Source: Alphaproteobacteria bacterium (GTDB lineage Bacteria > Pseudomonadota > Alphaproteobacteria > Paracaedibacterales > CAIULA01). Taken from it: DNA of 33,188 bases. Shown one piece after another: positions 27,596 to 29,359 of this stretch. The DNA lies in NCBI GenBank assembly GCA_019751935.1, contig JAIEMR010000095.1, forward strand, positions 1 through 33,188. Direction: 5' to 3'. The notes under the pieces are model-generated. The model did not search any database, had not been told where the DNA came from, and saw only the letters and a list, made by a program, of their open reading frames with translations. Made by a program: the position numbers and the translations under genes. How positions within the stretch are numbered: the stretch's first letter is position 1; each line of letters begins with the position of its first letter.

Positions 27596-29359
27596 ATGAC
27601 AACTGTTACCCAGAAAACCAAACAAATTCTTGTGCTATGCGGGTCACTAATATTGACAGGATCTGCCTTTGCAGCCAGTAGCGGTGAGGGGGGTGATGAA
27701 AATGCACCGCCCAACACTCCTAGAACTACAGCCAGATTATTAACCTACCCCTCTCTTTTTAGTACAATTGGTAGCATGACAAATCGCATTGGAATTAATA
27801 GGGCGGTTAGAAATTTTTTTAGAGAGACTTACCCCGATGGCGTTGATTCAAAAGGATTGGATGAATTTAGGCAGCAGCTAGCAAGAGCGGGTTCTGGTGT
27901 AACTCCTTCTGTTTATGCGCATATTACTAACACACTTCTTCCTATGTATGCTTCACATATGGGGGAAGAGCCTAGTGGAGGCATCAAAAGAAGAGTGCCA
28001 TCATATGATGGTGATGATGAAAGAGACGGCTTTTCAAGAGCTTTGACTGTGAGGACGTCATCAAGAGCTCCTCGATCAATTTTGGGGGACATAACCGATA
28101 CAGTTGATGGAGCAATGTCTCCTTTGACTCTTCCTCCCCTTCTTCGTCTTCTAAGGGAGCCACGACCAGTAGTTCTTAGCTATATGGCAGAACCTTCCTC
28201 TCGAGGGAGGTCACGGTTAACATTGCCACCGATTACTGAAGAGTCTTCTTTTGTGGAGCCAGGTATCCGTCCTGCAACTTTTCTTTCTTCGATTCCATCT
28301 ATTTCGGAGGAGTTAAATAGAAGAATCATTGGCGAGGAGCCAGCAATGGCATCGCTTGCAACTGGCCTGCATGTTCATTATACGATTCAAGACGTTAATA
28401 GTACACTTGAGGCCCTTGGAAGATCTGTCCGTGTTCCTAAACAAAATATTTTTATGTGCGGACCAACTGGATGCGGTAAAACGGCTTCCGTAAAAGCTGC
28501 AGCTAAAAAACTAGGTAGAACCTTTTATGAGGCTGACACCAGCGGATTTACCAGGACAGGATATGTCGGAGATAGCGCTTCTTCAGTTATCATTGGCCTT
28601 ATCAAGGAAGCACAAAATCAAATTACAGACTTTGTTATAGGATCACCTGAATACAAGAGAAAGGTTATAGAACTTGTACAAAAAGGTATCGTGTTTTTAG
28701 ATGAATTTGATAAAATTGGTGCTAAAAAGTCTGGCGGTAGTGAGAGAGATATAGCGGGAACAGACGTTCAGTCTGAACTTTTGAAACTGATGGAAGGTAA
28801 AAAAATAACCGTAAAAGTTGACAAGGAAGACTATGCAATTGATACAACCGATATTCTCTTTATTGCAGGCGGGGCTTTTTCCTCAATTGAAAGAAAAGGC
28901 GGAGAACCCATTGGTCCAGATGCGTTTGTTGAAGCTGGATTTAGCGAGCAAGTCCTAGGACGTTTTGGTCGAAGAATTTTCTTTGAAGGCATGACTCCTG
29001 AAAAATTCGTAAGAATCCTTCACTCTGAAGAAGCATCCCCAATTGTCCAAAATTTATTGCTTTTACAAATGGGCTATGGGATTGACGTTAAATTTGATGA
29101 AGATGCTATGAGACTCATAGCTGAAAGAGGATATGCTATGCAAGCAGGTGTGAGGGGTCTTGCAACTATGGTGAATACTGCGGTTGATCCACTCATTCGC
29201 CGCAGTGAAGAGCTAAAAGGAACAACCTTTACAGTCGATAAAGCTTTTGCAGAGGCTAATCTTCCTAAAGTTGAGCCTAGAAAAAAGGCGGCAAAACCTT
29301 ATACTTTTGAAGACCATATTAGAGATCACCCCAGAGATGAGTATGGTTTTTATAGCTAA
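27596..29359 (+). CDS. ClpX/HslU-family AAA+ ATPase with an N-terminal signal peptide and a low-complexity extension
   Basis: AAGGAG lies 7 nt upstream of the ATG. Signal MTTVTQKTKQILVLCGSLILTGSAFA/AS. Residues about 30-235 are Pro/Ser/Arg/Gly-rich with two LTLPP motifs. Walker A GPTGCGKT (28460..28483), pore loop GYVG (28559..28570), Walker B GIVFLDEFDK (D369 and E370 at 28700..28705), ILFIAGGAF, and sensor-2 GVRGL. Confidence 0.8.
   Translation: MTTVTQKTKQILVLCGSLILTGSAFAASSGEGGDENAPPNTPRTTARLLTYPSLFSTIGSMTNRIGINRAVRNFFRETYPDGVDSKGLDEFRQQLARAGSGVTPSVYAHITNTLLPMYASHMGEEPSGGIKRRVPSYDGDDERDGFSRALTVRTSSRAPRSILGDITDTVDGAMSPLTLPPLLRLLREPRPVVLSYMAEPSSRGRSRLTLPPITEESSFVEPGIRPATFLSSIPSISEELNRRIIGEEPAMASLATGLHVHYTIQDVNSTLEALGRSVRVPKQNIFMCGPTGCGKTASVKAAAKKLGRTFYEADTSGFTRTGYVGDSASSVIIGLIKEAQNQITDFVIGSPEYKRKVIELVQKGIVFLDEFDKIGAKKSGGSERDIAGTDVQSELLKLMEGKKITVKVDKEDYAIDTTDILFIAGGAFSSIERKGGEPIGPDAFVEAGFSEQVLGRFGRRIFFEGMTPEKFVRILHSEEASPIVQNLLLLQMGYGIDVKFDEDAMRLIAERGYAMQAGVRGLATMVNTAVDPLIRRSEELKGTTFTVDKAFAEANLPKVEPRKKAAKPYTFEDHIRDHPRDEYGFYS

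Follow-up and report, generated by a model that had tools for sequence, protein, structure and literature searches.

A candidate Sec-exported ClpX/HslU-clade AAA+ unfoldase with an HbYX-like tail in an intracellular alphaproteobacterium

Introduction

According to the textbooks, bacterial AAA+ unfoldases operate in the cytoplasm, since ATP is thought to be restricted to that compartment. A gene in a 33,188-nucleotide stretch of alphaproteobacterial DNA (the window) raises the question of whether there are exceptions, as it encodes a ClpX/HslU-like AAA+ protein that begins with an apparent Sec signal peptide. Where would such a motor work, what would supply its ATP and on what would it dock? 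Full-text literature searches returned no published description of a secreted or periplasmic ClpX/HslU-like protein of bacteria. By analyzing the sequence, the predicted structure and the relatives of this protein, we came to regard it as, on balance, probably a lineage-specific AAA+ unfoldase that is exported through Sec by an obligate intracellular alphaproteobacterium (Paracaedibacter/Holospora-type) and draws on host ATP to work beyond the bacterial cytoplasm. Residence in the periplasm or envelope and delivery to the host appear to us roughly evenly balanced.

Results

The gene is an open reading frame of 587 codons plus stop at positions 27596-29359, on the plus strand like all features described below, and its orthologs share 95-36% identity with it. 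The start codon had been considered well supported, and a direct reading bears this out: a Shine-Dalgarno sequence AAGGAG lies at 27583-27588, 7 nt upstream of the ATG. The AAGGAGTAAGAAG-ATG context is retained in two congeners, and an AGGAG-type site precedes the first ATG at six other loci of the family. The gene is flanked by tamB and dapD, and not by hslV or clpP. The flanking genes change from genus to genus, and no operon partner is conserved across genera. Searches of the window with Rfam detected no RNA families, and scanning for promoters and terminators near the gene gave nothing beyond shuffled expectation. A signal of horizontal transfer was rejected, the GC content of the gene (0.40-0.46) being inside the range of its neighbors. 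Among public sequencing runs, no RNA run is listed for this DNA; the shares of DNA runs are small, the best (0.27) coming from a freshwater metagenome.

The protein starts with MTTVTQKTKQ / ILVLCGSLILTGSAFA / ASS, and its residues 1-26 (27596-27673) have the layout of a Sec/signal peptidase I-type signal peptide: a positively charged n-region formed by the first ten residues (net +2), the h-region ILVLCGSLILTGS, which is within the heuristic range of 7-16 residues, and a c-region AFA with small residues at -3 and -1, so that cleavage is predicted between AFA and AS. This layout is common to all of the approximately 27 relatives, orthologs and paralogs alike, down to ~30% identity. The n-regions of family members carry a net charge of +2 to +4, and the next 15 residues are net acidic in seven of the nine members scored, which together argue for an N-in/C-out topology. 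The h-regions are ~13-16 residues long and contain helix-breaking Gly, Ser or Thr, and the small-x-small site is conserved. Comparison of codons 1-26 with those of congeners revealed three synonymous changes and one or two conservative replacements; judged from these codons, the segment is under purifying selection and evolves as coding sequence. No internal Met that could serve as an alternative start is conserved among the orthologs, and a Shine-Dalgarno sequence precedes the first ATG at each locus examined. A Tat signal was ruled out because a twin-arginine motif is absent, and a lipoprotein signal because Cys15 lies in the middle of the h-region with Leu at -1 and there is no lipobox. Export and cleavage of the protein are predicted on the basis of heuristics and conservation. 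Among the 196 signal-like open reading frames of the genome, it is the sole true P-loop ATPase. Both the window and the genome are rich in orphan proteins bearing signals.

The signal had been described as followed by about 200 low-complexity residues, a description that holds for the linker and fails for the helical domain before it. An acidic, proline-rich stretch (residues 27-42; 27674-27721) with a PPxTP(R/T)T motif conserved in alignments A1 and A2 has a pLDDT below 50. Next comes a predicted conserved four-helix domain (residues 43-122; 27722-27961), to which AlphaFold gives a pLDDT of ~80 within the full-length model and 86 for the isolated domain, and in which Y51, F74 and L88 are invariant among the aligned orthologs. 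We propose it as a candidate substrate- or adaptor-binding domain on the strength of this model. A fold search of the domain against the PDB gave no match at E ≤ 0.001, and an ESM Atlas feature search with residues 27-232 gave no usable match. The low-complexity part proper is a Pro/Ser/Arg-rich linker (residues 123-232; 27962-28291), with a pLDDT of 26-32 and disorder predicted for residues 123-227, where LTLPP does occur twice (at residues 177 and 208). Orthologs differ greatly in the length and sequence of this linker, which is gapped and divergent in alignment A1.

The remainder of the protein is a ClpX/HslU-type AAA+ module, and every motif earlier listed for it was found in place: IIGEEPA at residue 244, GPTGCGKT at 289, GYVG at 322, GIVFLDEFDK at 364, ILFIAGGAF at 420, GRFGRR at 455 and GVRGL at 518. 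The large subdomain (residues 233-436; 28292-28903) is defined by family-wide motifs and by the Pfam AAA and AAA_2 matches at 281-434, and contains Walker A (GPTGCGKT, 289-296), the pore-1 loop (TRTGYVG, 319-325) and Walker B (IVFLDE, 365-370). The small, or lid, subdomain (residues 441-555; 28916-29260) contains the arginine-finger motif GRFGRR (455-460) and the sensor-2 motif GVRGL (518-522), in which G455, R456 and R520 are invariant in alignment A1; ClpB_D2-small matches residues 494-533 slightly below its cut-off, and zf-C4_ClpX does not match. Foldseek retrieved ClpX and HslU with target-normalized TM-scores of 0.74-0.87 and E values of ~1e-22. The Walker A Lys, the Walker B Asp-Glu, the pore-loop Tyr, the arginine finger and the sensor-2 Arg are conserved family-wide, and in some distant members the first residues of Walker A are altered (GQSGCGKT, GHTGCGKT). 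By sequence and fold, the motor is complete, with its ATPase and pore-loop motifs intact; ATP hydrolysis, hexamer formation and substrate translocation are predicted from them.

The elements that connect ClpX with its partners are missing. At the site of the IGF loop (SSIERKGGEPIG, residues 429-440; 28880-28915 by alignment with ClpX), five residues separate GAFSSIER (433) from IGPDAF (439), compared with ~33 in solved ClpX chains aligned by phmmer, and the same gap in the genome's own ClpX holds GKGAGIGFGAE. No [ILMV]GF tripeptide occurs anywhere in the 587 residues. The reported absence of the zinc-binding N-domain is equally clear, as PF06689 has no match in the protein at E values up to 1; on the same genome it assigns 75.8 bits to the canonical ClpX on contig C173. 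The RKH loop is missing as well (GKKITVKVDKEDYAIDT in place of 24 protein letters in ClpX), an addition to the losses first listed. Only ~38 residues lie between GYVG (322) and Walker B (365), so the I-domain of HslU is absent too. Alignments with HslU pass over this domain, and at full length the protein is matched best by 1ofh, a structure with the I-domain deleted. As read from the alignments, all elements that tie ClpX to ClpP (the IGF loop) or to adaptors (the zinc finger and RKH loop) are lost.

The protein thus combines features of two known unfoldases. With ClpX, which provides the best alignment for the N-terminal half of the module, it shares the AAA+ fold, the GYVG pore-1 loop, the box-II IIGEE, the GRx arginine finger, the GxRGL sensor-2 and the lack of an I-domain. 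It differs from ClpX in the three missing elements, in lacking an adjacent clpP, in its signal peptide and C-terminal tail motif, and in forming a separate clade. HslU provides the best alignment for the C-terminal half (residues 348-556) and likewise has a short connection after sensor-1 without an IGF loop, and the whole module aligns with 1ofh; unlike HslU, however, the protein carries a signal peptide, has no I-domain and does not adjoin hslV, and the family ends in M/F-Y-x, whereas the HslU termini observed are [FY]-[IV]-L. Scores fall well short of the NCBIfam equivalog cut-offs for ClpX (NF003745, 151.2 versus 359 bits; TIGR00382, 121.6 versus 370.75 bits) and HslU (TIGR00390, 122.4 versus 362.45 bits).

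We identified canonical counterparts elsewhere in the same genome, a zinc-finger ClpX on contig C173 and an HslV-HslU pair on contig C20; clpP adjoins clpX in congeners. The protein is, by sequence, a third ClpX/HslU-clade AAA+ paralog and not the only clpX of its genome. In the phylogenetic tree the family forms one group (SH-aLRT 94), apart from ClpX, HslU and other groups without an IGF loop. The search for orthologs in related symbionts was positive in two families of the order: members are present in 8 of 10 genomes in the first (f1), in 8 of 10 in the second (f2) and in none from the other eight families. Each genome has one or two family paralogs, with variable, fast-evolving N-terminal regions. 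One member carries the label Candidatus Paracaedibacteraceae.

The C-terminus is a flexible tail (residues 556-587; 29261-29356) of low pLDDT that ends in G-F-Y-S-COOH. Its final three residues, FYS (29348-29356), have the hydrophobic-Tyr-any form of the HbYX motif (HbYX and Y-Phi motifs as defined in bioRxiv 10.64898/2026.04.13.718244). Of 24 family members, 21 have a terminus of the form [FMLC][YF]x, in which P2 is Tyr in 16 cases and Phe in 5; the other three are without the motif, and a copy in genome G027 ends in EEYTPRE. Across the 24 C-termini, column entropy is lowest at P2 (0.79 bits), followed by P3 (1.38) and P1 (2.91). The family terminus has a small residue at P4, M/F/L at P3, Y/F at P2 and a variable P1, while the preceding tail diverges. 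This pattern suggests that the tail docks on a ring partner. The protein had been called protease-independent, a description that is not supported as it stands: the conserved Hb-[Y/F]-x tail suggests that docking was altered rather than lost. That the C-terminus is a PDZ ligand is less probable, given that its final residue varies and is frequently polar. For one specific receptor, a motif of three residues is weak evidence.

Similar ends are found in the HbYX activators PAN, Rpt2/3/5, Mpa, Cdc48 and PA200, which share with the protein the hydrophobic-Tyr-any terminus, a flexible tail and a hexameric AAA+ ring (predicted for our protein). The tail of the genus, E-Y-G-F-Y-S, is close to the Rpt5-type N-L-Q-Y-Y-A and to the optimized N-L-S-Y-Y-T (bioRxiv 10.64898/2026.04.13.718244). 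The activators differ in belonging to the classic AAA+ clade rather than the ClpX/HslU clade; moreover, about a quarter of our family has Phe in place of Tyr, and the producer has no 20S of its own. PF00227 finds HslV and one 252-aa beta-like gene (both on C20) and no alpha-type proteasome ring. The beta-like gene was rejected as a partner because among 62 genomes only this one (G000) has it, and a second ClpP was rejected because it occurs only in G030. The host 20S proteasome is the sole known receptor type within reach and, if one partner had to be named, would come first, although we hold that identification doubtful. Complex predictions lent it weak support: residues 548-587 with three PSA_THEAC alpha subunits, an archaeal stand-in, scored 0.39, compared with 0.07 for the best control; the three runs against PSA_THEAC gave 0.39, 0.43 and 0.02, with a partner pLDDT of at least 39 and no contacts reported. 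Of the 78 solved complexes used for calibration, 51 reached the mark, as did 2 of 108 mismatched pairs; scores of 0.60 or below comprised just 5 of these 78 complexes, together with all 4 passing mismatches.

It had been argued that the periplasm has no ATP and that an exported motor would make sense only in a place such as the host cytosol. The TLC ATP/ADP translocase (PF03219) is present in 59 of the 62 genomes of the order and in none of 14 controls, and we therefore regard the order as obligate intracellular energy parasites. Holosporales are described as obligate symbionts, chiefly of protists (PMC11909080). The host ATP taken up by the translocase must first cross the outer membrane, so the periplasm should hold host ATP; judging from this transporter topology, the statement that the periplasm has no ATP should fail in these bacteria. 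Export alone therefore does not imply an effector, nor delivery to the host cytosol.

The genes surveyed gave no identifiable route through the outer membrane. VirB4 is found in just two of five genomes; a secretin is found order-wide in 59 of 62 genomes, as an orphan in its locus; and a GspF-like gene is followed by three open reading frames without a family match. None of these tracks the family, and no T2SS operon is recognizable around the secretin or the GspF-like gene. The type VI secretion system takes, to our knowledge, no Sec substrates. It is the secretion system reported to be conserved in this lineage (PMC11909080).

Discussion

The following mechanism can be proposed. SecYEG would export the unfolded chain, signal peptidase I would cleave it after AFA26, and the mature protein would form a hexamer where host ATP is present, in the periplasm at least and perhaps in the host cytosol. 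The periplasm is counted here as an ATP compartment, since host ATP can reach the inner-membrane translocase only by traversing it. Substrates would be captured by the four-helix N-domain on its flexible linker of ~100 residues and threaded by the GYVG loops. The C-terminal Hb-Y-x tails, rather than IGF loops, would seat the hexamer on a ring partner, in the manner of HslU, PAN/Rpt and Mpa.

Two alternatives dispense with export or with the motor. If the N-terminus were an uncleaved anchor or irrelevant, the protein could be a third cytoplasmic unfoldase, acting by itself or with HslV as its docking partner. HslU docks on HslV through its C-terminal tail, the C-terminal half of our protein is HslU-like, ATP is certain in the cytoplasm and the signal call is heuristic. 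The charge distribution, however, predicts N-in/C-out; the h-region of ~13-16 residues with G/S/T and the small-x-small site are typical of cleaved signals; the M/F-Y-x tail is unlike the HslU termini (KFIL, RYVL); and the genomes retain a normal HslU, so that we consider a cytoplasmic role improbable. That an exported protein acts as an ATP-independent binder or holdase would fit the altered first Walker A residues of some distant members, but a dead ATPase is not expected, because the catalytic and pore residues are conserved family-wide (the Walker A Lys, Walker B Asp-Glu, pore Tyr, arginine finger and sensor-2 Arg), which leaves a holdase with very little probability.

An exported motor could remain in the periplasm and run on host ATP diffusing through porins, serving in envelope quality control or docking on a ring-shaped envelope channel and powering the export of unfolded proteins, like HSP101 on PTEX. 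We take this to be a real possibility, somewhat short of a probable one. The periplasm is the default destination of signal peptidase I substrates, the wide occurrence of TLC implies periplasmic ATP, and no dedicated effector route was found; the secretin is as widely conserved as the translocase, and the many Sec-dependent orphan proteins would need passage through the outer membrane. The precedent is an exported AAA+ unfoldase on a heptameric pore, the HSP101 hexamer, which docks on it and unfolds cargo (PMC7355975). Against periplasmic residence, the family is confined to two of the order's ten families, unlike the secretin and TLC, which occur throughout the order, and no neighbor gene is conserved. 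We also know of no periplasmic AAA+ unfoldase and of no periplasmic receptor for an Hb-Y-x tail. Alternatively, the protein could leave the bacterium after Sec export, through a secretin-based machine, vesicles or lysis, and cap the host 20S via its HbYX-like tails, either feeding it chosen host proteins without ubiquitin or merely opening its gate; the bacterium could thereby gain amino acids or rid itself of host defense factors. Such delivery is consistent with the retention of an HbYX/Y-Phi-like terminus while the tail before it diverges, in bacteria without an alpha-type proteasome ring, and with the loss of the IGF loop, the fast-evolving N-terminal regions, the one or two paralogs per genome and the abundance of signal-bearing orphan proteins in window and genome. 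The complex prediction adds weak support, with one of its three runs scoring 0.02. We nevertheless regard host delivery as rather unlikely, since no outer-membrane route was identified, Sec substrates are mainly periplasmic, the short motif has Phe instead of Tyr in about one member in four and the archaeal 20S stand-in may not match that of the host. The specific proposal that the exported ClpX/HslU-derived hexamer serves as a ubiquitin-independent cap and substrate feeder of the host 20S is, in our judgment, an unlikely one.

Whichever compartment the predicted Sec-exported unfoldase reaches, it has a functional likeness to AAA+ proteins that are exported by a signal and work outside the cytosol of their producer, namely HSP101 (ClpB2, of the Plasmodium PTEX) and the torsins, which are ER-lumenal. 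These are eukaryotic, and HSP101 is a two-ring protein of the ClpB type; the comparison is one of analogy only, homology being limited to AAA+.

An intact motor combined with a conserved export signal and an altered docking motif, in a family restricted to obligate intracellular energy parasites, suggests either an ATP-containing envelope or an unfoldase delivered to the host. Should the protein prove to be a proteasome cap, we would know of no earlier AAA+ unfoldase effector secreted by a bacterium and of no earlier microbial 'proteasome cap'. Should it reside in the periplasm, it would be the first AAA+ unfoldase of that compartment, made possible solely by the host ATP that the periplasm of an energy parasite holds. 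Either outcome would alter how the envelope and the secretome of intracellular bacteria are interpreted, and would offer an experimentally simple system: a single gene, a motif of three residues and a 20S assay that can be purchased.

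A ClpX/HslU-like motor without ClpX-type docking

The AAA+ protein under study (27596-29359, plus strand; 587 residues) is preceded by a Shine-Dalgarno sequence, AAGGAG, at 27583-27588 on the same strand, 7 nt before the ATG, and contains all the motifs named by the sequence-only reading. Pfam places AAA and AAA_2 at residues 281-434 and ClpB_D2-small at residues 494-533 (21.6 bits versus a cut-off of 21.9). Because its scores lie below the cut-offs of the two nearest NCBIfam models, ClpX (151 bits, cut-off 359) and HslU (122 bits, cut-off 362), we classify the protein by sequence as a divergent relative of both and an equivalog of neither. 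The roughly 200 residues that follow the signal had been described as low-complexity; this description holds for residues 123-227, the only ones predicted to be disordered, but not for residues 43-122, a conserved predicted four-helix domain (pLDDT ~80, or 86 when folded alone).

The docking elements of ClpX are missing. In phmmer alignments with solved ClpX chains the protein passes from residue 433 to 439 where ClpX runs from ~256 to 290, the IGF-loop segment, and the ClpX of the same genome has ...GKGAGIGFGAE... in this gap, which bears out the proposed loss of the loop. The RKH loop is also shortened in both comparisons. The ClpX zinc-binding N-domain is likewise absent (no zf-C4_ClpX match in the Pfam search), as is the HslU I-domain. 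Over its whole length the module aligns with 1ofh, an I-domain-deleted HslU structure, and its C-terminal half aligns best with HslU. In contrast, the whole family shares the Walker A lysine, Walker B DE, pore-loop TRTGYVG, arginine finger (GRF/GRL) and sensor-2 GxRGL, and comparison of the predicted fold with ClpX and HslU gives matches at target-normalised TM-scores of 0.74-0.87. With the IGF loop gone and the motor motifs and fold kept, the protein is probably an active threading motor, and we conclude that the ClpX mode of docking on ClpP has been lost. In three distant family members (P0131, P0132 and P0133), long unrelated low-complexity insertions occupy the precise position of the ClpX IGF loop, and Walker A occurs as the variants GQSGCGKT and GHTGCGKT.

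The source genome, a metagenome-assembled genome of 1.81 Mb in 206 contigs (~72% complete), also encodes a ClpX with zinc finger (contig C173) and HslV-HslU (contig C20); thus the protein is an extra paralogue and not the only ClpX, which would have refuted the sequence-only reading. No clpP was found in this ~72% complete assembly; both congeners and two further genomes of the family have clpP immediately beside clpX.

Distribution of the family

A profile search of 1.84 billion representatives showed a score gap after 11 representatives (>370 bits), and proteins of the next tier (240-260 bits) likewise have both a signal peptide and the same C-terminus. In the phylogenetic tree, a single group (SH-aLRT 94) unites the 17 members sampled and excludes ClpX, HslU and the other ClpX-like groups that lack the IGF loop. 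Across the order's 62 species genomes, the protein family was found in two taxonomic families (8 of 10 genomes in each), with two copies in some genomes, and in none of the other eight; one member carries the label Candidatus Paracaedibacteraceae. The gene has no constant neighbours: in the window it lies near tamB, dapD and dapE, in other genera near gltX and bc1-complex genes. Outside the signal-bearing family, the AAA+ module has its next-best relatives in P0123 (1238 aa, Caenarcaniphilales by label) and in P0127, P0128 and P0130 (776-987 aa), all of them much longer and of other architectures; the latter three have hydrophobic N-terminal segments, and P0123 is without a signal peptide.

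The nucleotide transporter TLC was found in 59 of the 62 genomes (49/49 of high quality) and in none of 14 control genomes; it was not found in the ~72% complete source assembly, and both congeners have it. This occurrence, together with genome sizes of 1.1-2.8 Mb, fits Holosporales sensu lato, whose members live as obligate symbionts, for the most part of protists (PMC11909080).

A conserved N-terminal predicted signal

The n/h/c layout of the N-terminus is conserved in an 11-sequence alignment (95-36% identity). All of ~27 family proteins, including translations of further loci and distant representatives, start with a short Lys/Arg-containing n-region followed by a 12-20-residue uncharged stretch (h- plus c-region) and a small-x-small site, and in most an acidic or Ser/Pro-rich stretch comes next. 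Every locus translated has an AGGAG-type site before the first ATG, upstream of the hydrophobic segment, and none shows a conserved internal start, which upholds the N-terminus as first read. Compared with two congeners, codons 1-26 show three synonymous changes and only one or two conservative replacements; these mainly synonymous changes indicate that the segment is translated and under purifying selection. The signal has neither a twin arginine nor a lipobox. Its charge distribution predicts an N-in/C-out topology, so that even an uncleaved segment would put the motor outside the cytoplasm. By a crude heuristic, 196 of 1411 ORFs of the source genome look signal-bearing, and of these the AAA+ protein alone is a genuine P-loop ATPase. 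From these heuristics and the conservation of the predicted signal, we consider real Sec export highly likely. Directly after the predicted cleavage site, residues 27-42 (27674-27721) contain a PPxTP(R/T)T motif, which is kept in long orthologues down to ~45% identity and fits a P-x-T-P pattern; it may be a sorting signal, a site of phosphorylation or something else.

As judged from predicted signals, a lineage-specific, Sec-dependent secretome is enriched in the window. Six further ORFs begin with signal-peptide-like segments: 3022-5112, 5891-6601 and 16361-17146 on the plus strand, 9091-9993 and 10414-11910 on the minus strand, and also on the minus strand 701-2746, in which the segment is N-terminal only if translation starts at Met12 of the called ORF. 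Two of the six have an acidic stretch after the signal, and the four that were scanned match no Pfam family. The two largest minus-strand ORFs look like paralogues because of their similar C-termini (701-2746, ...NVKSHLDPADSLLLSF; 10414-11910, ...NVRGHLSADSEALDF).

C-terminal motif and candidate partner

A C-terminal [M/F/L/C]-[Y/F]-x motif is present in 21 of 24 non-redundant family members. Counted from the last residue, position 2 (Y 16, F 5) has an entropy of 0.79 bits, position 3 (M 14, F 4, L 2, C 1) of 1.38 bits and position 1 of 2.91 bits, and position 4 is mostly small; the preceding 20-30 residues diverge freely. The tail matches the HbYX pattern (hydrophobic-Tyr-any at the extreme C-terminus). 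HbYX-pattern tails insert between 20S alpha subunits. HslU docks on HslV via its C-terminus, but its own termini as seen here (...KFIL, ...RYVL) differ from the family tail. The genus-level ending E-Y-G-F-Y-S resembles Rpt5-type 'Y-Phi' tails (N-L-Q-Y-Y-A and N-L-S-Y-Y-T), in which position 1 is small and polar, position 2 Y/F, position 3 aromatic and position 4 small (bioRxiv 10.64898/2026.04.13.718244). That the family has lost the IGF loop and gained a conserved terminal tripeptide suggests a change of docking target, not an end to docking.

No alpha-type ring was found in these bacteria, PF00227 giving only HslV and a beta-like gene confined to the source genome; of the known receptor classes, therefore, only the host 20S proteasome is within reach. 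When residues 548-587 were modelled with three Thermoplasma alpha subunits, the complex had a median score of 0.39 (runs 0.39, 0.43 and 0.02; partner pLDDT at least 39) against 0.07 for the best control, in a range (≤0.60) that in calibration held 5 of 78 solved complexes and all 4 passing mismatches. This modelled complex is at most a hint of 20S docking, and we regard docking of the family motor on the host 20S proteasome as rather unlikely.

The beta-like gene (contig C20:16481-17233, minus strand; locus L077, 895-1653) encodes a 252-aa Anbu/BPH-like proteasome beta/HslV-like protein starting MTVVIGIY..., whose Thr2 may be the catalytic nucleophile; it differs from the HslV encoded on that contig and, among the 62 genomes, was found only in the source genome. 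The motif-less family members are two paralogues and one distant member. The paralogues belong to genomes G030 (contigs C8, C19) and G031 (C11, C9), each with two signal-bearing copies (loci L005, L063, L069, L065), one ending M-Y/F-x and the other ...RFHAL or ...RSRSM; such pairs recall AAA+ rings with docking tails on only some subunits. The copy in genome G027 (L059, contig C29) ends ...HPREEYTPRE and the near-identical metagenomic P0003 ends ...HPREEYSFYN, either a terminal indel/frameshift or an assembly error hitting the motif.

ATP supply and final location

The sequence-only reading held that the periplasm lacks ATP, and that an exported motor therefore makes sense only in the host cytosol. 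This premise should fail for an energy parasite. The ATP/ADP translocase lies in the inner membrane and swaps bacterial ADP for host ATP; host ATP would thus cross the outer membrane and sit in the periplasm, as we infer from the established transporter topology and the TLC survey of the order. Consequently, export alone does not show an effector role, which stands as one of two live readings.

We consider the final location roughly even between the periplasm or envelope and the host. For the periplasm, SPase-I substrates stay there by default, ATP should be present in that compartment, and no demonstrable route across the outer membrane came to light: VirB4 occurs patchily among the genomes examined, and a secretin and a GspF-like protein occur order-wide, outside any recognisable T2SS operon. 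To our knowledge, the T6SS does not use Sec substrates. It has been reported as a conserved secretion system of the lineage (PMC11909080). A periplasmic export motor is conceivable by analogy with a eukaryotic precedent, Plasmodium HSP101 on PTEX, in which an exported AAA+ unfoldase is seated on a ring-shaped channel (PMC7355975). Passage to the host side is favoured by the HbYX-like tail, the very variable N-terminal regions and linkers, the one or two paralogues per genome, the restriction of the family to intracellular lineages, and the abundance of signal-bearing orphan proteins in both genome and window.

The secretin, found in 59 of 62 genomes, is an orphan in the source genome (Secretin plus Secretin_N_2; contig C12:4173-5906, locus L078) with unrelated neighbours, and the GspF/PilC-like gene on contig C8 (L100, 6934-8145) is followed by three ORFs without a family match; these genes may belong to a T2SS or a pilus.

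No description of such a protein was found in the literature searched. The initial observation is confirmed and is stronger than could be known from one sequence: throughout a family of an obligate intracellular lineage, the signal, the loss of the loop and the newly recognised terminal motif are all conserved.
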